Assembly: GCA_004284765.1 (NCBI GenBank)
Contig: NQJD01000018.1
Span: 1-32,000, forward strand
Reading direction: 5' to 3'
Source: Candidatus Electronema aureum
GTDB lineage: Bacteria > Desulfobacterota > Desulfobulbia > Desulfobulbales > Desulfobulbaceae
DNA length: 32,000 nucleotides
Made by a program: the position numbers and the translations under genes. Below the pieces are notes generated by a model. It saw only the letters and a list, made by a program, of their open reading frames with translations. It did no database searches and was not told where the DNA came from. How positions within the stretch are numbered: the stretch's first letter is position 1; every line of letters starts with the position of its first letter. Positions 5,307 through 22,379 of this stretch are shown one piece after another.

Positions 5307-6197
5307 TCAAAAGATTGACGGCCAAGGTGCCCGCGTGCAGGTCAAGGATGGCCTCTGAATGCGCACGGTTTCGTCCGCGCTTAACGTGCCGCCTGTGACA
5401 GTGACATGCGGAGTCGCGGCTTTGTCTGTCAGGATGCCGACATCAGGCGGATTGGGGTGGCCGAAATTAGTCAGCAGCAGCGGCGTGCGCAGCTTGCGGC
5501 GGTAGATGCCGGTGCGCAGGGTGCCGTTTTCGGTGTAATGAGTGGAGATGGAGACCAAGTACTCGTTGTTCCACGGGCTGGTCTGGGCGGGGATGTCCGG
5601 CAGGAGGGTGATTTCGGTGTTGGAAATTGACCCGAAGCGGCTCTGCACTGTCCTGCCGCTGCGGGTGCCTTCCAGCACGCACTCGCTGACCGCGTCATCA
5701 GGATCAAAGAAGAGATCAGTGCCGGTCAACCGCAGCAGCCCCTGGGAATTCAGCACATTATCCAGCTTGAACACCGTGTCCTGGGCAGAGCTGATCAGCG
5801 GCAGCTTCTCGGTCGGCGGCAGCCGCTCCAGCTGCGCCAGCCGCCGCACCTCCTCCAGAAAGACTTGGGAGGCAATGACCCGGACATTCAGGACTTCCTT
5901 GGTGGGCGGCAGGGGATCGTCCGGCGAGTCCAGCCGGGCGTTCAGGGAGACGCGGAAGGTGAACGCATCCTCCAGCGCGGACTGATTGCCGTTGATGAGG
6001 TCGAGCTGAATTTCCTCCACCAAGGCCTTCAGCGTGATCTTGACCATCTCCTCATCCAGCGCGGAATGCTTCTGCGCAATCCGGGTGGCCAAGTCATTGT
6101 TGCCGCTTGTGCTGCGCGGCAGATGCAGGGGCCGCCAAGACTGCGGCTTGGTCAGGGCGTTGACTTCAGGTCTCCACTGTACGGTTGCGGTTGCCAT
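5307..6197 (-). CDS. putative DNA-binding protein with HU-like N-terminal domain and DUF4469-like C-terminal region
   Basis: 296 aa with SD ggaga 6 nt upstream. The N-terminal ~100 aa (DLATRIAQKHSALDEEMVKITLKALVEEIQLDLINGNQSALEDAFTFRVSL) fit the HU-fold pattern. The segment LLRLTGTDLFFDPDD...NEYLVSISTHYTENGTLR resembles DUF4469. Assignment is by recognition only. Confidence 0.55.
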   Translation of the reverse strand: MATATVQWRPEVNALTKPQSWRPLHLPRSTSGNNDLATRIAQKHSALDEEMVKITLKALVEEIQLDLINGNQSALEDAFTFRVSLNARLDSPDDPLPPTKEVLNVRVIASQVFLEEVRRLAQLERLPPTEKLPLISSAQDTVFKLDNVLNSQGLLRLTGTDLFFDPDDAVSECVLEGTRSGRTVQSRFGSISNTEITLLPDIPAQTSPWNNEYLVSISTHYTENGTLRTGIYRRKLRTPLLLTNFGHPNPPDVGILTDKAATPHVTVTGGTLSADETVRIQRPSLTCTRAPWPSIF

Positions 6198-6304
6198 GGC
6201 TGTTCTCCGGTTAAGTTAACTGCTCGGCATACGTGTGAAACTGCCTGAACAGGCATGGTAAAGAGCGCGGCGTTTTCTGTCAACAGGAAAATATTCCTGG
6301 CAGG

Positions 6305-6419
6305 CATGTACATGGTTGGCGCAGCGTCATGCGCATGACGCTGAGAAAGTCATGCACATGAGTTTCAGACAGTCATGTACATGATCGTCAGGCAGTCATG
6401 AGCATAAGCAGTAGCTTTT
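6305..6419. repeat. five tandem 23-bp units, each starting with a CATGnnCATG-type palindrome (iteron/operator-like array)
   Basis: Units start at 6305, 6328, 6351, 6374 and 6397. They are catgtacatggttggcgcagcgt / catgcgcatgacgctgagaaagt / catgcacatgagtttcagacagt / catgtacatgatcgtcaggcagt / catgagcataagcagtagctttt. An 18-bp perfect palindrome gcgtcatgcgcatgacgc lies at 6324..6341. Confidence 0.65.
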
Positions 6420-6526
6420 TTTGCAAGCGGGCAAGATATTTCCTTGACAGGTACCACGGGGGGGGGATAGCATTCACTTCAATCTAACGAATTTTACGCT
6501 TATAAAAGTTAAACGAGGAGCAAGCC

Positions 6527-7423
6527 ATGAAGCTGACGAAAAGAGTGATGATAGTCCCAGTTGCCAGCTTATTGCTGCTGAGTGGGTGTGCCAGCCGGGT
6601 CAGCCAGTTCAAGACTTTTGGCGAAACCGGAGCAAAGTATGTTGACACCATGAATAAGTTGCTGGGTGCGTCAGGCGAGGTCTCCATTGATGCGAGTTCT
6701 GCATTGCTCATTAATCAGCGAAGTAATGCGATTATCGGAGATGCTGGTAAAGCTTACGAAGAACTTAAAGAAAGCGACAAGCTAATGGACAATCGTTTGC
6801 AGATTCTCAACGATATTGCGGAGCATAATCAACAACTCAAGTTATACTTCAAGGCCCTTGCAGGCTTGGCAGGAAGCAATGCAGGCACGGAGATTGCCAC
6901 AGGCACCAAAAGCATAGTTGATGAACTCAGCAAGCTAAATCCAAAAATCTCCAAGGCAACACTTGGCGAGGCCCCTATTGGCAGCTTGGTCGGACCAGCG
7001 ACAGAATTGGTAGTCGCCAGTTTTCAGCAGGCTGCCTTGGAGAGGGAGCTTAAGACAAATGCCAAAACTATAGAGCGGGAGCTTGCGCTTCAGGTTGCAG
7101 CCATGCAAGCAGTTGCTACTATCTGGAAATCTGATCAGAAAATCATCATTGCAGGAAATAAGAAAATCAACCAAGAGCAGTTCCTTAAAGACAATGCACT
7201 GCCAAGGAATTGGGCAGCGAATCGGAAAGCTGTCCTGACAGCCAGCACCTCTGCCGAACTTGCAGATTCAGCAAGCGAGGCAGCCAGAAAGCTGAAAGAA
7301 GCGTTCGAGATACTGGTAAGCAAAGGAGATAAGGAAAAAGTTGAAAATATTCCGCTCATCGTGAATGACCTTAACAAGGTGCTGGATCTGATAGAGCTGG
7401 TCAAGAAAGGTCCATCTGCTTAA
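6527..7423 (+). CDS. alpha-helical lipoprotein, unknown function
   Basis: 298 aa with signal peptide and lipobox (MKLTKRVMIVPVASLLLLSG|C). SD acgaggag lies upstream. G+C is clearly lower than in core genes (23/60 in line 6721). Confidence 0.75.
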   Translation: MKLTKRVMIVPVASLLLLSGCASRVSQFKTFGETGAKYVDTMNKLLGASGEVSIDASSALLINQRSNAIIGDAGKAYEELKESDKLMDNRLQILNDIAEHNQQLKLYFKALAGLAGSNAGTEIATGTKSIVDELSKLNPKISKATLGEAPIGSLVGPATELVVASFQQAALERELKTNAKTIERELALQVAAMQAVATIWKSDQKIIIAGNKKINQEQFLKDNALPRNWAANRKAVLTASTSAELADSASEAARKLKEAFEILVSKGDKEKVENIPLIVNDLNKVLDLIELVKKGPSA

Positions 7424-7466
7424 GAATTCTCTTTAGTCAATCGAATCAATGCACAAGGTGAATAAT

Positions 7467-7799
7467 ATGGAATCGTCAAAAATTCGCGCGTTGACCATAA
7501 AGTGTCTTCACGAGGCAGTCCTTGAGATGATGTCTTTCGAGTGGCATGAGGAAGTCGCCAAGCTCCCTACAGCAAAAAGGAAGAAAGTCAGCCTGCTGGT
7601 ATTGGATTGCTTCAACTGGAAGGTCAAATTGGAGAACGCCCAGCTTGAGGCTATTCTTGCTCAACTCGAGGAAAATAAAGAGGCGTTAGAGGCCGGAACA
7701 AAGAAGGTGAATGAGGCCTTAAAGAATCTTAAACAGGTGAAGGATGTTCTTGACGCAACAAGCTCACTATTGAACGTCGTCGCCAGGGTTGTGGTGTAA
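7467..7799 (+). CDS. small coiled-coil hypothetical protein
   Basis: ORF track gives 7449..7799. I prefer ATG 7467 because aaggtg lies 7 nt upstream. The C-terminal half is heptad-like (LENAQLEAILAQLEENKEALEAGTKKVNEALKNLKQVKDVL). Confidence 0.5.
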   Translation: MESSKIRALTIKCLHEAVLEMMSFEWHEEVAKLPTAKRKKVSLLVLDCFNWKVKLENAQLEAILAQLEENKEALEAGTKKVNEALKNLKQVKDVLDATSSLLNVVARVVV

Positions 7800-7937
7800 T
7801 ATAGCCTGACTGCCCTTCCTCCCCGCCTTGCTCATCGCCTAGTTCAGCGGCATCCAGTGGGTGCTTATGTGCTGGGTAATGGCAAAGGCGGGGAAGTGAG
7901 AGAGCAGCGCATAAGTTCCAGCAAGTGCGACTGTTGA

Positions 7938-11211
<3,274 letters not shown>

Positions 11212-11228
11212 GGGAGGGTGCGGCTTGA

Positions 11229-11759
11229 TTATGCAGCTAATTTCCTCCTAAAGATGGATATAACTTTATCATCTGGCTGATCAGAAGGAATATCTATTGA
11301 TGTGATCATGCTTAACAGTTTAGGTTGAATCCCAAGAGAACAAGCTATGTCGACAGGTCGTATATTTAAGTGCTTTTCTTCTAAAAGATCAAGTGACCTT
11401 CGTATCAATGTTGGCCGCTCAATTGCTATTAAATCATCGTACCATTCACCTTTGGTCTGGCCGGACTTGTTCAGAAAAACATTAGCACTTCTATACTGAA
11501 GCGATGTGATTTTATCGAAGAAGTGAGCTTTGTATATTAAAGCCTTGACGCTCATGCCCCATCTTGTTTTCAGTCTGTATATTAAATCCCAGTTTATCCT
11601 CCCTCCTTTGAAGTCAGGAAATTCTTGTAAAAAAGCATTTCTTGGAAAAATAAATGCGCTTGCGAATCGGTCAGCTTCGCTCTCTGTAATATTGTCTCCA
11701 GTTTCCATGCCATCATGCAGAACGAAATGACCACACTCGTGCGCTATAGTATTTAAGTT
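11229..11759 (-). pseudogene. 5'-truncated ImmA/IrrE-family metallopeptidase
   Basis: The frame is open only from 11759 and reads NLNTIAHECGHFVLHDGMETGDN...EADRFASAFIFP. The HExxH motif lies at 11727..11741 and only 6 codons precede it, whereas family members normally have a longer N-terminal region. Low G+C (21/60 in line 11281). Confidence 0.7.
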
Positions 11760-11815
11760 TTAAATCAGTTGTGTTATAATTTATAACCTGAGAGGTTATT
11801 TTTTTATTTAACTAA

Positions 11816-11931
11816 TAGGAGTTACGCAGTTGAAATTAGAAATTCAATTATTACAGCAACTTGTTCTTTTGCCGCACAATTCTCCAGTTGAACAAAATCA
11901 ACGGGTTGCAAAACCAACTGCGTAACTCCTA
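11816..11931. mobile_element. MITE copy 1 (116 bp including flanking TA)
   Basis: Perfect 16-nt terminal inverted repeats taggagttacgcagtt ... aactgcgtaactccta, with TA at both ends. It is homologous over its full length to 12041..12156. Confidence 0.8.
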
Positions 11932-11992
11932 AAGAGTTTAAGCGTTTGCGTCGAGACGGTTTTCCAGACGATATAAAAACTGAAGTACTATA
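11932..11992 (+). mobile_element. fragment of IS630-type transposase 3' tail
   Basis: About 60 nt match 190..250 with 4 mismatches by eye. It reads KSLSVCVETVFQTI* in the tail frame. Confidence 0.7.
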
Positions 11993-12040
11993 TTTGTTGC
12001 TTGCAAAGTTCATGCCTAAGTTGCATCTTTTAAAAATTAC

Positions 12041-14049: not shown

Positions 14050-16170
14050 ATGGCCATTTCACCGGAAAAGCAGGCAGAAGGAAGAATTAAGAGCGTTGAC
14101 AATGCCATCACCCAGATTCACCGGCAGTTCGGTAAAGGTTCCATCATGCGCCTTGGCGCACATGAGCGGCAGAATATCCCGGTCATCTCCACCGGTGTTT
14201 TGGGAATTGATCTTGCTTTGGGCGTTGGTGGCCTGCCGCGTGGTCGGGTGACGGAAATCTACGGCCCGGAATCCTCCGGTAAAACCACATTGGCCTTGCA
14301 CGTCATCGCCGAAGCCCAGCGGATGGGTGGTAATGCCGCCTTTGTTGATGCCGAACACGCTTTAGACACCGCTTATGCTGAGAAATTAGGTGTCGATGTC
14401 GATAATTTGCTGGTCTCCCAACCTGATTTCGGCGAGCAGGCTTTGGAGATTTGCGAAATCCTGATGCGCAGCGGCGGGTTGGATGTCATTGTCGTCGATT
14501 CAGTAGCGGCTTTAGTGCCGAAAGCAGAAATCGACGGCAGTGTGGGCGACATGCACGTCGGCCTGCAAGCTCGGCTGATGTCACAGGCCATGCGCAAGTT
14601 CACAAGCGTCCTCCAACGAACCAACACAGTGTTGATTTTCATCAATCAAATCAGGATGAAAATAGGAGTAATGTTTGGCTGTTTCCACTATGATGCACGG
14701 GTGGTGCTTGCTGACGGAACCTCTGAAAAAATCGGCAAAATTGTCAATCAGAAGATGCCGCTTGAAGTCATGTCGTACAATGTGACGACGGGTGAGTTTG
14801 AACCTCGCCCAATTATTAACTGGTTTAATAACGGTCCAACTGAAACATTTCTCCAATTTACTGTGGATGCAAACAGCGGTAATGGGCATCATGCCTTTGG
14901 TTGTACTCCGAATCATCTGCTCCTTTCAGAGTACGGCTATAGACCAGCGGGAGAACTGAAGGCTGGCGACCGACTGATGACGATGGTTGAATACTATCTC
15001 TCGCCAATCCAAGAGCAGGTGGTTCTCGGTTCAATCCTTGGTGACGGTAGCCTGCGGCAGATCAGCGATTACAACACCGCACTCCGTATCGGACATGGGC
15101 AGGCGCAAGATGCCTACTGTTTGTGGAAACAGTCATTGTTCGAGGGGCTGATTGGTTCCGAGACAACGAATATGCGCGGCGGTCACAGCTTCGACACCAT
15201 CCCGATGTATGAATTAACAAAGCTGAGAGTAGAGAATTATGACGAAAAGGGTAAAAATCCTTCGCAAACACTGATTGACCGCCTTACACCTTTAGCCATT
15301 GCCGTCTGGTATATGGATGACGGCACCTTTGATAGCGAGCGACAAAATCGCTGTTCAATTTCCTGCCCAGGATTTCCGCTGGAGAAGCAGCAGGTCTTAG
15401 TGCGCTGGTTTCATGAGCGCGGAATTATGGCTACCCTGACGGCGCGCGGTTCCATCAATTTCGGTGTTCAGGAGACACCCAAATTCCATGCGATGATCGC
15501 CCGCTACATCCATCCGTCAATGGAGTACAAGCTCCTGCCGACTCTACGCGGACAGTTTGTCCAAGTTGAGGCTGCTGCCCAGCGAACTCTGCAAGCCGTC
15601 CCTATGCCAATTCTCGACATCCACGAAAAGCCTGAGACCCGTGGCATGAACCGTTTCGACTTGGAAATCGACGGCAATCATTGCTATGTTGTCGATGGGG
15701 TGGTAGTTCACAATTCTCCAGAAACCACCACCGGCGGCAACGCGCTTAAGTTTTACAGCTCCATTCGTCTTGATATCCGGCGATTAGCCCAGATTAAGGA
15801 TGGACAAGAGGTGATTGGCAATCGGACCAAGATCAAGGTAGTCAAGAACAAGGTCGCTCCACCGTTCAAGGAGATTGAATTCGACATCATCTATGGTGAG
15901 GGCATTTCCCGCAGCGGCGACCTGCTTGATCTGGCAGTGGAGAAAAACATTATCGACAAAAGCGGTGCTTGGTACGCTTATCAGGATGAGCGTATCGGCC
16001 AGGGCCGTGAGAACAGCAAGAATTTCCTCAAGGAGCATCCTGAGATGCTGTTGGAAATCGACCAGAAAGTACGCCAGAGTTATGCCTTACCGACTGGAGC
16101 AGCGGCATCATCTGTAGAGTACGTCCCGGAAGATGAGTATCCAGAAGATTTGGACAACACAGCAGACTGA
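14050..16170 (+). CDS. recA: recombinase RecA precursor containing an intein
   Basis: The exteins (aa 1-210 and 556-706) are colinear with RecA: Walker [10 protein letters not shown], then ...[12 protein letters not shown] | [24 protein letters not shown] 345-aa insertion lies between them. Confidence 0.95.
14680..15714 (+). mobile_element. RecA intein with LAGLIDADG homing-endonuclease domain (345 aa)
   Basis: It starts with Cys ([13 protein letters not shown]), has block B GCTPNH (TxxH), LAGLIDADG motifs [10 protein letters not shown] and [12 protein letters not shown], and ends VVHN followed by Ser +1. G+C is lower than in the exteins (27/60 in line 14761). Confidence 0.9.
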
Positions 16171-18678: not shown

Positions 18679-18705
18679 ACAAATGCAACTTCAACGAGAT
18701 TCTGC

Positions 18706-19566
18706 ATGGGACAAACTGTCATCCTTTTCCTCGCAGCCAACCCGGACGGCACAGTCTGTCTGCGTGTTGATCGGGAGATCAAAAAGATAGAGCAAGGTCT
18801 GCGTGTTGCCGAGCAGCGCGACTGCTTTGTCTTCAAGACCTGTCAGGCTGTGACTGTGCCTGATCTGCGCCGGGCCATGCAGCAGCACAGGCCGCAGATC
18901 GTCCATTTCAGCGGACACGGCGACGGTGCGGCAGGGTTGTGTTTTGAGAGCGGGCAGGGCAAAATCCAGTTCGTTCAAGACGAAGCTCTGGCAGCCTTTT
19001 TCAGCATGTTTTCCGCCGAGGTGCGCTGTGTTGTCCTCAATGCCTGCTATTCCGAGGTGCAGGCTGAAGCCATTGCCCGGCATGTTGATTATGTGATCGG
19101 CATGAGCGATTCCATTACCGATCAGGCGGCAATCGCCTTTTCTGTTGCCTTTTATGAAAGTCTTGGCAATAGTGAATCTATTGAATCCGCCTACAAATTC
19201 GCCTGCGCTGAAATAGCCCTTCTCGGCCTGAAAGAAGAGCATATTCCCAAGTTGATCCGCCGCCATGCGGCTGAGGAACGGAACATCGTGCAACCCTTTG
19301 TCAAAAGCGAGATTGAACATATCCAGCGGCTCGTTGCGGAAGACAAGCTCGAAAAAGCTCTGGCCGAATTTTTGATTTTCGCCGCATCAGCCGATGCAGA
19401 GATAAAGCAGGAGGTGATCGTGCATCAGGCGGCACTGGCCAAGGCAGGAAAAGAGCGGCGGAAAGGCTTGATGGATACTGACAAGGAAGAGCAGATGCGG
19501 AATAAGGTTCGTTATGCGCTGCTGGAACTGCTGAACGAACAGGCGGCGCGGCAGTTTGAAAATTAA
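18706..19566 (+). CDS. short CHAT/caspase-fold protease fused to a C-terminal helical adaptor-like module
   Basis: ILFLAANPDGTVCLRVDREIKKIEQGL...RPQIVHFSGHG (His71)...VRCVVLNACYS (Cys114)...AAIAFSVAFYESLG is the compact CHAT pattern. Residues ~206-278 are homologous to the next ORF. Confidence 0.8.
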   Translation: MGQTVILFLAANPDGTVCLRVDREIKKIEQGLRVAEQRDCFVFKTCQAVTVPDLRRAMQQHRPQIVHFSGHGDGAAGLCFESGQGKIQFVQDEALAAFFSMFSAEVRCVVLNACYSEVQAEAIARHVDYVIGMSDSITDQAAIAFSVAFYESLGNSESIESAYKFACAEIALLGLKEEHIPKLIRRHAAEERNIVQPFVKSEIEHIQRLVAEDKLEKALAEFLIFAASADAEIKQEVIVHQAALAKAGKERRKGLMDTDKEEQMRNKVRYALLELLNEQAARQFEN

Positions 19567-19583
19567 GCTGACAGTTTTCCCTT

Positions 19584-19862
19584 ATGCCTGCGGCAAATGA
19601 CATAAAAGAACGGCATTCAGAAGTGCAGATGCTGTTTGCTGAGGACAACATCAACGAAGCCGTCAAGCGGCTCATGGATTTTGTCCGTGATTTTTCGCAG
19701 GATAACAGTGACAACTTGAACGAGGTGATTGTCATCAGCAGCAGTTTTAGCCGATTAGAGAAGGCGGAACGACGTGGGACGCTCAGTTATGACGAGGTGG
19801 ATCAGAAACGAAATAAGCTGCTGTATCAGGCTCTCGATCTTATGGAGACTGTCATCGCATGA
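19584..19862 (+). CDS. stand-alone helical module (92 aa) homologous to the CHAT protein C-terminus
   Basis: My hand alignment of aa 14-89 to CHAT aa 206-278 gives 22 identities in 73 columns with one 3-residue gap. Shared strings are Q-L-AED, EVIV, R-G and Q-RNK--Y--L-L. The stop overlaps the next start (ATGA). Confidence 0.6.
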   Translation: MPAANDIKERHSEVQMLFAEDNINEAVKRLMDFVRDFSQDNSDNLNEVIVISSSFSRLEKAERRGTLSYDEVDQKRNKLLYQALDLMETVIA

Positions 19863-21115
19863 ACAAGGAGCAGGCAATGCAGGGTATTGAACAGGCTGCC
19901 GCAGACCTTCGTGCCGCTATTGCCAGCAATCCCGGAGAGCACGGCACTGGTCTGGTGCAGTTTGCTAACACATACGCCTTGAAGAGCAGTCAGCGGCATT
20001 CTGCGGTTCTTCTCAAGCTAAACTGGACCAAAGCAGCGGACGAGGAGCAGCAGCATCGTGTTCTCCAAGACATGCTGGCCTTGCTTGAGGAAATTGTTGC
20101 CGACTCTGCCAGCGGCACGGCGGGCGGGGAGCCGCCGCTGAACCAACTCATTGTCCGCGCTCAGGAACATGTTCCTGAGCCGCCGCATGATGTAGTTTTC
20201 AGCTGCGAAAATCTCGGCAAAACCTACAAAAAATCCGGTTTTCAGCTCAACGGCGTGAATTTGCAGCTTCGCTTCGGCGAAATCACCGGCGTGGTCGGCG
20301 AGAACGGCAACGGCAAAACCACGCTGTTCCGCATCGTTGCCGGTGAACTGCTGCATGATCAGGGCAGCATCGCATATCCGCTGTTCGGTCAGGACAGCGC
20401 GGCAAAAAAGGGCATCAACTGGATCAAAGTCAAGGAGCAGATTGCCTATGTGCCGCAGGAGCTGCCCAAGGTGTATGGCAAATTAGAGGAGATGCTTCAG
20501 TACGAGGCCGCCATTCACGGCATCCGGGGCAAAAAAAATCTGCGGGAAGTGGATTTCATTGTCCAGCGGCTGGAACTGAGCGAGCACTTGGAAAAACGCT
20601 GGAAAGAGCTGTCCGGCGGCTTCAAGCTGCGTTTCGCCTTAGCCTGCGCCTTGGTCTGGAAACCCAAGCTGCTAATCATTGACGAGCCGTTGGCCAATCT
20701 TGATTTCAAGGCCCAGCAGGTGGTGCTAAGAGATTTGCGCAATTTGGCGGAGAGTCTGCGCTATCCCATGTCTGTGCTGATTTCCTCTCAGCATTTGCAC
20801 GAGGTTGAGGCGATTTCTGATCAGATCGTCTTCCTTGACAAAGGCAAGGTTGAATTCAACGGGCCGAAAGAGCAGCTTGGCGAGGAACGCCGTTGCAACA
20901 CCTTTGAGATGCTGGTGTCCTGCAAAGAGGAAGAACTGCGTGAGCATCTCCGGCGGCTTGCGCCGCAGCGGATTCAGCATTCCGGGGTTTCTTATGTGGT
21001 CACGCTGCCGCTGGCGGTGGATGGAAGTAGGCTGCTGCGGCATCTGCTGGAATGCGGCGTGGAGGTGGAATATTTCCGGGACATCAGCCGGTCAATCAAG
21101 CAGTTGTTTCATTAA
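19859..21115 (+). CDS. ABC-type ATPase with ~110-aa N-terminal helical extension and C-terminal accessory domain
   Basis: Walker A GENGNGKT (aa 147-154), signature LSGG (251-254), Walker B LLIIDE (271-276) and H-loop His312. It has no transmembrane segments. The N-terminal 110 aa are not part of the ABC fold. Confidence 0.85.
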   Translation: MNKEQAMQGIEQAAADLRAAIASNPGEHGTGLVQFANTYALKSSQRHSAVLLKLNWTKAADEEQQHRVLQDMLALLEEIVADSASGTAGGEPPLNQLIVRAQEHVPEPPHDVVFSCENLGKTYKKSGFQLNGVNLQLRFGEITGVVGENGNGKTTLFRIVAGELLHDQGSIAYPLFGQDSAAKKGINWIKVKEQIAYVPQELPKVYGKLEEMLQYEAAIHGIRGKKNLREVDFIVQRLELSEHLEKRWKELSGGFKLRFALACALVWKPKLLIIDEPLANLDFKAQQVVLRDLRNLAESLRYPMSVLISSQHLHEVEAISDQIVFLDKGKVEFNGPKEQLGEERRCNTFEMLVSCKEEELREHLRRLAPQRIQHSGVSYVVTLPLAVDGSRLLRHLLECGVEVEYFRDISRSIKQLFH

Positions 21116-21132
21116 TTGGCAGAGCATTTACG

Positions 21133-21918
21133 ATGATTCCTATTTTTTTCAAGAAATTGGATCAGAATTTGAGGGTGAATTATCCGATAGTTTGGCGGAC
21201 GCGAATTCACTATTTTTTCTGGTATCTTTTAATACTTTTAATGTTGACTTTCTTAGCGAAATTATTTAATTCAAATAAGCTGGATTTTTTATATAAATCA
21301 AAAGGAAATCAAGAACTTTGCATGATTATATTGACATTTCTGTCAATCTTTGTACTGCATCCGTTTTATCATCCAATCGGTGACAATCGATTAGTTAAAT
21401 GTATTTTTACTACATTATGCTATAGTTTATGTTTTTTTTCTATGTCGTCAATTATGATCCTGACCATATTACCACGTATAGATTTGTCATATTATATTTT
21501 AATAAATATATCTACGGCTTTAATAGTTACAGTTTCTTCGTCACTTAGAAGAATAAGCGATGACAATATGAAGATTTTATCTTCGTGTTGTTTAAGTGTA
21601 ATTTTTTTGTTTGCTTTCATGTTCATGATTTATTACATAAACGATACAACAATAAAATATAAATATAGTTATATATTTACAATACCTTTGATTACAATGT
21701 TTTACATTGCATTATTTATCGTTTTATCGCGACGCATCGCATCTTTTGTATTTATGTTTTTAACATTCTTCATTCTTATTTTCTTTTTATTGATTCCAGA
21801 GAATTTCTATTTTTTTTATCCAGCGGAAAAATTGAGAGTAATTTATCTGTTTATAGCATTCAATACTATGATTGCTTTTAAAGTGCTGATTCGATATATA
21901 TACTGGCCAAAGCCGTGA
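21133..21918 (+). CDS. polytopic membrane protein (7-8 TM), extremely AT-rich gene
   Basis: 261 aa from ATG 21133; the track start 21052 overlaps the ABC gene out of frame. Hydrophobic segments run throughout. G+C is 13/60 (21241..21300) and 12/60 (21601..21660) by hand count. The stop overlaps the rlmH GTG start. Confidence 0.7.
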   Translation: MIPIFFKKLDQNLRVNYPIVWRTRIHYFFWYLLILLMLTFLAKLFNSNKLDFLYKSKGNQELCMIILTFLSIFVLHPFYHPIGDNRLVKCIFTTLCYSLCFFSMSSIMILTILPRIDLSYYILINISTALIVTVSSSLRRISDDNMKILSSCCLSVIFLFAFMFMIYYINDTTIKYKYSYIFTIPLITMFYIALFIVLSRRIASFVFMFLTFFILIFFLLIPENFYFFYPAEKLRVIYLFIAFNTMIAFKVLIRYIYWPKP

Positions 21919-22379
21919 GATTCATCCTCCCCTTCCTCGGCAAAACCAAGGAAAGCTACCTTGATCACGGCATCCGCGACTACGCCGAACGCCTGCGCCG
22001 CTACGTGCCGGTGGACATCAAGGTGCTGAAAGAGCCAGGCAAAAATGAGCCGGATGCGGTGCTCATGGCCCGCGAGGCGGATTTGCTGCTGAGTCAGGCT
22101 GCCGCAGCTTCTCTGCTCGTGGCCCTTGATCCGGCTGGCCGCGAGCAGACCTCAGAAGATATGGCCGCTGCTTTAGAAAGCTGGGAAAGCCGAGGTCTGC
22201 ACACTATCTGCTTTCTCATCGGTGGCCATCTTGGCTTAGACCCGCGTGTACGCCAGCAGGCCAACGCACTTTGGTCGCTCTCCCGCCTCACCTTCACCCA
22301 CGAGATGAGCCGCTTCATCCTGATCGAGCAGCTGTACAGGGCCTGTTCGATCAAGGCCGGACACAAGTATCATCGATAA
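21915..22379 (+). CDS. rlmH: 23S rRNA (pseudouridine1915-N3)-methyltransferase RlmH
   Basis: 154 aa, colinear with E. coli RlmH from residue 1 (MRFILPFLGKTKESYL...FLIGGHLGLD...LSRLTFTHEMSRFILIEQLYRA...HKYHR). GTG start. Confidence 0.9.
   Translation: MRFILPFLGKTKESYLDHGIRDYAERLRRYVPVDIKVLKEPGKNEPDAVLMAREADLLLSQAAAASLLVALDPAGREQTSEDMAAALESWESRGLHTICFLIGGHLGLDPRVRQQANALWSLSRLTFTHEMSRFILIEQLYRACSIKAGHKYHR

Follow-up and report, generated by a model that had tools for sequence, protein, structure and literature searches.

A probable membrane-linked defence operon with EAD11 modules on a CHAT protease, a stand-alone protein and an ABC ATPase in the cable bacterium Candidatus Electronema aureum

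Organization of the locus

The genes described here lie on 32,000 nucleotides of DNA (the window hereafter) from Candidatus Electronema aureum, a freshwater cable bacterium, corresponding to positions 1-32,000 of the forward strand of contig NQJD01000018.1 (assembly GCA_004284765.1). Four genes, tightly packed and read in one direction, encode a CHAT protease ended by an effector-associated domain (EAD) of the EAD11 family, a stand-alone EAD11 protein (ORF2, for open reading frame 2), an ATP-binding cassette (ABC) ATPase with an EAD11-like N-terminal domain, and a polytopic membrane protein. This operon is a probable, so far undescribed, membrane-linked defence system with what looks like death-domain-style wiring. 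Its features are the following, lengths being in amino acids (aa).

18706..19566, + strand: CHAT-EAD11 effector protein, 286 aa, with an N-terminal caspase-like CHAT protease domain and a C-terminal EAD11 (Pfam and PADLOC)
18721..19212, + strand: CHAT (caspase-fold) protease domain, residues 6-169 (phmmer to 8tl0_A)
19309..19539, + strand: EAD11 copy 1, effector class, CHAT residues 202-278 (Pfam PF19964)
19584..19862, + strand: ORF2, stand-alone EAD11 protein, 92 aa, copy 2, adaptor class (Pfam PF19964)
19859..21115, + strand: ABC ATPase, 418 aa (Pfam ABC_tran, motifs, AlphaFold2)
19865..20110, + strand: EAD11 copy 3, diverged and shortened, ABC residues 3-84 (HHalign and AlphaFold2)
21133..21918, + strand: polytopic membrane protein, 261 aa from its likely start codon (motifs common to homologues encoded 3' of ABC genes)

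The stop codon of ORF2 overlaps the ABC start codon (ATGA), the junction reading GCATGAAC. The reading frame of the membrane protein is listed from 21052, its most plausible start being at 21133. Reading of the frames and domains of the operon yields no vWA, MoxR, STAND or GTPase gene.

Downstream, the next gene (21915-22379, 154 aa), judged RlmH-like from its N-terminus, starts with a GTG that overlaps the stop codon of the membrane gene, and this housekeeping methyltransferase gene may be co-transcribed or translationally coupled with the cassette. A 209-aa antisense frame (18691-19320, - strand), wholly included in the CHAT gene and without independent support, is probably spurious.

The EAD11 module on the CHAT protein and on ORF2

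The first-pass annotation of the window, made from the sequence alone, had proposed that the same helical module occurs at the C-terminus of the CHAT protein and as the free-standing ORF2 (19321-19850, that is, from CHAT residue 206 through ORF2 residue 89). BLASTP aligns CHAT 199-276 with ORF2 7-87 (E = 1e-9) with 23 identities in 81 columns and one 3-residue gap, which essentially reproduces the alignment then made by hand (22 identities in 73 columns, with a gap of the same size). The Smith-Waterman score of the pair is 102 vs 28.2±5.2 in shuffles (z = 14.3), none of the 2000 shuffles reaching 102. Thus, the similarity is real and far above chance. Both copies also pass the curated gathering threshold of the Pfam EAD11 model (PF19964, 26 bits), with 55.1 bits for CHAT 202-278 (E = 7.5e-15) and 56.9 bits for ORF2 11-88 (E = 2.1e-15). 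The presence of one module on both proteins is thereby confirmed, as is the family name, which had been given only tentatively. The comparison with shuffled sequences, suggested at that time as a check, turned out in favour of the proposal for this pair and also for the profile comparison with the ABC N-terminus described below, which scores far above its shuffles.

The sequence of ORF2 is that of CDV28_11819 of Candidatus Electronema aureum (100% identity), and its UniRef label already designates an effector-associated-domain protein. Its AlphaFold2 model (predicted local distance difference test, pLDDT, of 90) displays four helices, at residues 2-19, 23-37, 42-64 and 69-91. The module has the traits expected of an EAD, being small, non-catalytic, all-alpha and terminal: it ends the CHAT protein, begins the ABC ATPase and makes up the whole of ORF2. 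That ORF2 might be a frameshifted piece of the ABC gene was considered and rejected, as it is a separate, overlapping frame whose length is conserved in every related locus. A tblastn search of plasmid and phage collections with ORF2 gave no match.

A third, diverged copy on the ABC ATPase

Besides these two clear copies, a shortened third one had been suspected on the N-terminus of the ABC ATPase. Pairwise, this region is not significantly similar to either EAD11 (z = 0.8-1.8, Smith-Waterman with shuffles), and it has no match to the Pfam EAD11 model even at E<=10, the 26-bit threshold for membership not being reached, whereas the comparison of profiles bears out the suspicion. Indeed, this N-terminal extension is conserved over a large family of ~415-aa ABC ATPases, and HHalign of a profile of 112 ABC N-termini against one of 20 EAD11 sequences gives a probability of 94.3% (E = 1e-7) over 73 columns (ABC 8-80 vs ORF2 5-91). 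The alignment spans nearly the whole domain, the ABC copy carrying a 12-residue deletion. The real score is 39.9 vs about 10-11±2.4 (maximum 18.2) for 100 column shuffles of either profile, while a reversed-profile control scores 13.5.

In the AlphaFold2 model, the helices of the ABC N-domain are located at residues 3-23, 25-39, 43-58 and 62-84, following the ORF2 pattern with a shorter helix 3, and the domain is connected to the nucleotide-binding domain (NBD) through a low-confidence, predicted flexible linker (residues 85-110). Unrelated folds in structure predictions had been named as a result that would speak against the proposal; the ORF2 and ABC N-domain models share a four-helix layout instead. 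Homologues point in the same direction. The homologue P0089 carries a canonical EAD11 at the same position of its ABC protein (Pfam E = 6.4e-12), the ABC proteins of loci L004 and L005 likewise begin with a canonical EAD11, and the N-domain of the Bacteroidota branch of these ABC proteins also matches EAD11 (HHalign 82.6%, E = 1e-5). From these profile alignments and predicted structures, it is concluded that the third copy is real but diverged, and that it is to be called EAD11-like rather than a member of the Pfam family.

The CHAT protease and the ABC ATPase

The CHAT domain is recognized by Pfam (PF12770, 37.8 bits vs a cutoff of 24) and by the PADLOC models chat (E = 6.5e-18) and SAVED_CHAT (E = 1.7e-7). 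It is homologous to residues 288-457 of the solved SAVED-CHAT protein 8tl0_A (phmmer, E = 4e-18), with which it shares the HFxGHG and VVLNAC motifs, both catalytic motifs being aligned identically. The putative catalytic dyad, His71 (HFSGHG) and Cys114 (LNAC), is intact. Unlike SAVED-CHAT, a protease of cyclic-nucleotide signalling defence, the window protein lacks a SAVED sensor domain and bears EAD11 as its regulatory appendage; its activation would therefore proceed by protein recruitment and not by nucleotide binding.

The ABC ATPase consists of the EAD11-like N-domain, the flexible linker, a transporter-type NBD (Pfam ABC_tran, PF00005, 89.6 bits) and a C-terminal alpha/beta domain. All its motifs are intact, namely Walker A (147-155, with K153), the Q-loop (197-201), LSGGF at 251, Walker B (271-277, with E276) and H312. 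The AlphaFold2 model (pLDDT 89.6) is closest in Foldseek to the NBD and regulatory domain of ABCA3, ABCA4 and ABCA7, to TM_1403 and to MetN. By both sequence and fold, the nearest relatives are thus ABC-2/ABCA-type NBDs of transporters that carry a regulatory domain at the C-terminus. The protein stays below every NCBIfam equivalog cutoff, and no equivalog was found for any of the four operon proteins. With exporters such as GldA, DrrA, TM_1403 and ABCA, it shares the NBD followed by a C-terminal alpha/beta domain, all the catalytic motifs and a membrane protein encoded downstream in translational coupling; it differs from them by its N-terminal EAD11-type domain and by a membrane partner that belongs to no known permease family.

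A conflict ATPase of the SMC-like kind (ABC-3C/Lamassu type) was also considered and rejected, the NBD being contiguous and of transporter type in fold and motifs. The ATPase is not of the SMC/Rad50/OLD type, with an insertion or coiled coil, found in ABC-3C/Lamassu, PARIS AriA, Gabija GajA and Septu PtuA. PADLOC matches of the ABC protein are only weak, partial and at the level of the P-loop (AriA, PtuA, LmuB and GajA, E = 2e-4 to 9e-3).

A hypervariable membrane protein

The window membrane protein displays about 8 hydrophobic segments. An N-terminal P-I/V-W-R-T-R-x-H-Y-F motif and a C-terminal RYxYWPKP motif are common to it and to its counterparts in L001, L002, L083, L084 and L087. With 261 aa vs 490-604 aa for these homologues, the window copy is about half length and is devoid of their central soluble segment. 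It matches no family in Pfam, NCBIfam, PADLOC or the PDB; neither it nor 13 homologues match a recognised permease family or any other entry of Pfam, NCBIfam or the PDB, and a profile of the membrane protein recovers nothing in the PDB or Pfam.

The membrane gene has a guanine-cytosine (GC) content of 0.274 (0.294 at third codon positions, GC3) vs 0.552 (GC3 0.673) for the ABC gene. The ABC proteins of the window and of L089 are 97% identical, and nucleotide identity between the two loci reaches 92.6% for CHAT, 88.5% for EAD11 and 96.6% for ABC, whereas the membrane genes cannot be aligned, the best local match covering 46 nucleotides, and the breakpoint of similarity is the ABC stop codon. 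Among relatives with 97% identical ABC proteins, the membrane gene is thus replaced or diverged, that is, hypervariable. Three metagenomic contigs break at this gene, L089 and L090 inside it and L091 at its start.

Related loci: a constant core and a varying effector

A core made of a 92-99 aa EAD11, the ABC ATPase and a polytopic membrane protein (490-604 aa; 261 in the window) is found in every readable locus with this ABC subtype, its genes overlapping or abutting. The stand-alone EAD11 gene lies directly 5' of the ABC gene in each of the loci below.

L001, Escarpia tubeworm endosymbiont: core present; upstream TIR protein with N-terminal EAD11
L002, 8.9-Mb genome: core present; no upstream effector
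L003, betaproteobacterial metagenome-assembled genome (MAG): upstream TIR protein with EAD11; contig ends before a complete membrane gene
L083, Bacteroidota: core present; no upstream effector
L084, Burkholderiales: core present; upstream TIR protein with N-terminal EAD11
L087, Ca. Electrothrix laxa: core present; upstream CHAT protein with C-terminal EAD11
L089 and L090, relatives with 97% identical ABC: CHAT-EAD11 present; contigs end inside the membrane gene
L091, same species as the window: CHAT-EAD11 present; contig ends at the start of the membrane gene

The upstream effector is a CHAT protein with C-terminal EAD11 in cable bacteria (Electronema and Electrothrix) and a TIR protein with N-terminal EAD11 in L001, L003 and L084. 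Three genes, for the stand-alone EAD11, ABC ATPase and membrane protein, thus keep their order whether CHAT, TIR or no effector precedes them; they make up the core, and the protease is a swappable accessory. This conserved core is a point that the first-pass annotation did not contain.

Other loci depart from this arrangement. No stand-alone EAD11 gene is found in L004, L005 and L085, where the ABC protein itself carries a canonical EAD11. In L085 (5001-11004), four unannotated proteins (311, 301, 602 and 310 aa) take the place of the single membrane protein after the EAD11-like ABC fusion, so that the downstream genes differ within one ABC family. A profile scan of genome contigs identified, among the matches listed, L003-L034 and L037 as members of the ABC family and many others as generic ABC ATPases. 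Within this set, the Bacteroidota loci L006-L034 and L037 combine an ABC protein bearing an EAD11-like N-domain of ~85 aa with a protein of 440-640 aa and 7-9 transmembrane segments.

The cassette occupies three unrelated contexts. In Electronema (window 18706-21918, and L091), it stands between a CxxCxxCC-family gene and rlmH; in Electrothrix laxa (L087 3854-7738), it lies beside a DDE transposase, a PDDEXK gene and a HepT/Polbeta pair; in L089 (2546-5297) and L090, it follows telA. Therefore, it is horizontally mobile, even between close relatives. Its hosts, as a plain listing rather than a statistical comparison, include multicellular cable bacteria but also tubeworm endosymbionts, Burkholderiales and Bacteroidota MAGs.

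Three EAD11 classes and the wider family

Aligned together, the EAD11 modules of seven loci fall into three separate clades, one for those on effectors, one for the stand-alone proteins and one for those on ABC proteins. Identities within a locus are 14-31%, whereas they rise to 53-76% within one class across genomes. Thus, the EAD11 of the window CHAT protein is 53% identical to that of the L001 TIR protein and just 28% to the neighbouring ORF2, which is itself nearer to effector modules (about 28% identity) than to ABC-borne ones (about 15%). Since pairwise identities of the classes also co-vary over the loci (r = 0.93 and 0.94), the triplication is old and the three modules have been inherited together. 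As the C-terminal EAD11 of a CHAT protein so closely resembles the N-terminal EAD11 of a TIR protein, the catalytic domain and its placement have been exchanged while the adaptor was kept. These relationships among the sequences suggest that contacts are probably specific and heterotypic, between EAD11 classes rather than between near-identical copies.

An EAD11 profile search (HMMER) of 1.84 billion cluster representatives recovered 2180 proteins at E<=0.001. Architectures were counted for 146 of the best 150 matches, 94 of which are stand-alone (77-135 aa) and 52 larger; the partner domains of the latter are given below.

ABC_tran: 16 of the 52 larger EAD11 proteins
CHAT: 5 of 52
TIR_2: 4 of 52
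AAA_16: 3 of 52
Caspase: 2 of 52
Subtilase, SIR2_2, SEFIR, nSTAND1, EAD7 and LRR families: 1 of 52 each

With 16 of 52, the ABC ATPase is the principal partner for the EAD11 clade nearest to this locus, as judged from these best 150 matches. The family also includes giant proteins, P0155 (1276 aa), P0157 (1617 aa), P0161 and P0168, with five or six tandem EAD11 repeats, P0155 having no Pfam domain besides EAD11. They may be multivalent adaptor scaffolds.

Comparison with known systems

In described EAD systems, a nucleoside triphosphatase (NTPase) core bears one EAD copy, and an effector whose gene is adjacent bears another (Kaur, Burroughs, Iyer and Aravind, eLife 2020 and 2021; PMC7159879, PMC8195603). 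The present loci share with them a small, non-enzymatic, all-helical terminal domain, whose copies are found on an NTPase core, here the EAD11-like N-domain of the ABC protein and the canonical EAD11-ABC fusions of homologues, and on the effector of the adjacent gene, CHAT-EAD11 in the window, L087 and L089-L091, or EAD11-TIR in L001, L003 and L084. They also share effectors that vary between related loci (here CHAT or TIR); the host of the window is a multicellular, filamentous bacterium. Unlike in those systems, a transporter-type ABC ATPase and a membrane protein form the core, an extra and obligatory domain-only protein is present, and the adjacent EAD copies belong to three old paralogue classes instead of being closest relatives. 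The cores described so far are vWA-MoxR with VMAP, iSTAND or FtsH; GAP1 GTPase; STAND; AP-GTPase; NucA-trypsin; EACC1; and TRADD-N (PMC7159879, PMC8195603), and the core of the present loci is none of these. Neither paper uses the term ABC in its main text, and EAD11 is mentioned in the 2021 supplement solely as LRR+AP-GTPase+COR+EAD11 (PMC8195603).

A second comparison is with animal death-fold cascades (receptor/FADD/caspase-8 and NLR/ASC/caspase-1) and with bacterial CARD-like gasdermin systems (PMC10312443). All of them combine an adaptor domain on the sensor, an adaptor protein and a protease of the caspase fold that bears this type of domain too, and activation by induced proximity is presumed here. 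The sensor differs, being an ABC ATPase, and so do the adaptors: Death, CARD and Pyrin domains are six-helix bundles with no detectable kinship in sequence or fold to the predicted four helices of EAD11, which also recovers itself alone in the profile network of Kaur et al.

The EAD11 domain, its name and the idea of a homotypic adaptor are already published, so that the first-pass annotation is a correct rediscovery on these points. The part that may be new is the transporter-type ABC core with its membrane protein and the three-tier adaptor arrangement, neither of which was found in the literature searched or in PADLOC. Nor did the literature searched connect EADs with ABC ATPases or describe defence systems of cable bacteria.

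Proposed function and alternative explanations

With slightly more confidence than doubt, the operon is interpreted as a four-gene, horizontally mobile, EAD-coupled conflict system in which dimerisation of the ABC ATPase would nucleate EAD11 assembly and activate the protease. Module homology, the modelled fold class, gene order, effector swapping and co-divergence are the findings on which this interpretation draws, its mechanism and function being conjectured from these sequences and models. The ABC ATPase and the membrane protein would act as an NTP-dependent sensor and switch at the membrane. A signal sensed by the variable membrane protein would cause ATP-dependent closure of two NBDs, which would bring together the flexibly tethered EAD11-like domains. 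The stand-alone EAD11 would serve as bridge or nucleator, and the resulting assembly would recruit and cluster CHAT-EAD11, or EAD11-TIR in other genomes. Oligomerisation by proximity would then switch on the protease or NADase and lead to growth arrest or death of the affected cell. The earlier idea that contacts between modules could assemble protease and ATPase corresponds to the published EAD principle (PMC7159879, PMC8195603). As a precedent, a bacterial CARD-like adaptor is required in a protease-dependent anti-phage defence (PMC10312443).

Several findings weigh against a conflict system. As modelled and compared by sequence, the ABC ATPase is an ordinary transporter-type NBD, and PADLOC names no system at this locus, just generic CHAT, TIR and P-loop parts. 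The cassette of the window is flanked by housekeeping genes, its last gene even overlapping the start codon of rlmH, and its half-length membrane protein could be degenerate. The EAD11 model has no significant neighbour among solved structures (Foldseek vs the PDB, best E = 0.39), and kinship with the Death fold therefore cannot be claimed. Adjacent EAD copies are generally each other's closest relatives (PMC7159879), and those of the window locus are not. Furthermore, no EAD11 effector or stand-alone EAD11 lies near the Bacteroidota two-gene units (L006-L034, L037), and these effector-less ABC/membrane pairs fit a housekeeping exporter equally well.

Part of this evidence would be expected of a conventional exporter of a lipid, peptide or envelope component, the EAD11 parts being regulatory or assembly subunits and the CHAT or TIR proteins occasional hitch-hikers. 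Such an exporter is considered unlikely, although the NBD is of transporter type and nearest to ABC-2/ABCA NBDs with a C-terminal regulatory domain, the ABC/membrane pair is widespread in Bacteroidota without a nearby EAD11 effector, 2 of the 7 full loci lack an effector, and the window copy stands among housekeeping genes. Indeed, the membrane partner matches no known permease family and is hypervariable among close relatives, an unusual trait in a housekeeping transporter, and the cassette is mobile. The added upstream gene always encodes an EAD11-tagged enzyme of the death type, CHAT or TIR, and EAD11 is found elsewhere on caspase, subtilase, SIR2, STAND and LRR-GTPase proteins.

The wiring could also be the same with a reversed role for ORF2, the stand-alone EAD11 being a decoy or inhibitor that would cap the EAD11 of the effector or of the ABC protein until removed by a trigger, for which animal CARD-only and pyrin-only proteins offer a comparison. 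ORF2 is an adaptor domain and nothing more, it resembles the effector class (about 28%) more than the ABC class (about 15%), and it is dispensable where the ABC protein has a canonical EAD11 (L004, L005 and L085). This role is rather improbable, however, as the stand-alone EAD11 is kept in the effector-less loci L002 and L083, ORF2 is translationally coupled to the ABC gene and not to the effector gene, and its occurrence coincides exactly with that of a diverged ABC N-domain, as if compensating for the divergence. A recent local duplication or a mere compositional likeness of helical, charged segments, without functional meaning, is hardly credible: helices and charged residues abound in all three segments and the ABC copy escapes pairwise detection, but two clear copies pass a curated Pfam model and the shuffle controls are decisive. 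Moreover, each class has orthologues in the same place in genomes of Desulfobulbaceae, gamma- and betaproteobacteria and Bacteroidota, so that the duplication is ancient and maintained. Chance or meaningless duplication is thus refuted by Pfam, the shuffle controls and the three-clade tree.

The EAD-coupled conflict system has a more far-reaching version, in which a membrane-embedded, transporter-derived ABC machine would be the receptor and NTP switch of a bacterial apoptosis-like pathway and would represent the primary evolutionary home of EAD11. The sensor would be the hypervariable polytopic membrane protein, swapped as a cassette, and the trigger would be dimerisation of the NBDs driven by ATP. 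The relay would then run in three tiers, from the EAD11-like domain of the ABC protein through the adaptor-only EAD11 protein to the EAD11 of a caspase-like protease or TIR NADase. This version is possible but doubtful; the pathway would in this case parallel in function that of receptor, FADD and caspase-8 in animals.

Other features of the window

Besides the operon, the window includes a RecA gene (14050-16170), whose product owes its length of 706 aa to an intein containing a LAGLIDADG homing-endonuclease domain. The recA gene of L091 has Pfam matches to RecA_N, LAGLIDADG_2 and RecA_C. Further dips of GC content are located at 11001-12000 (0.43) and 6001-8000 (0.48-0.50), vs a background of roughly 0.50-0.63.

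Significance

If the operon is a defence system, it would add a switch resembling an ABC transporter to the known NTPase sensors (STAND, GTPase, MoxR and SMC-like ABC). With four genes, it would moreover be a compact model in which to test how adaptors of the death-domain kind turn on caspase-fold and TIR effectors, and would place this model in cable bacteria, where the death of one cell affects the whole conducting filament.

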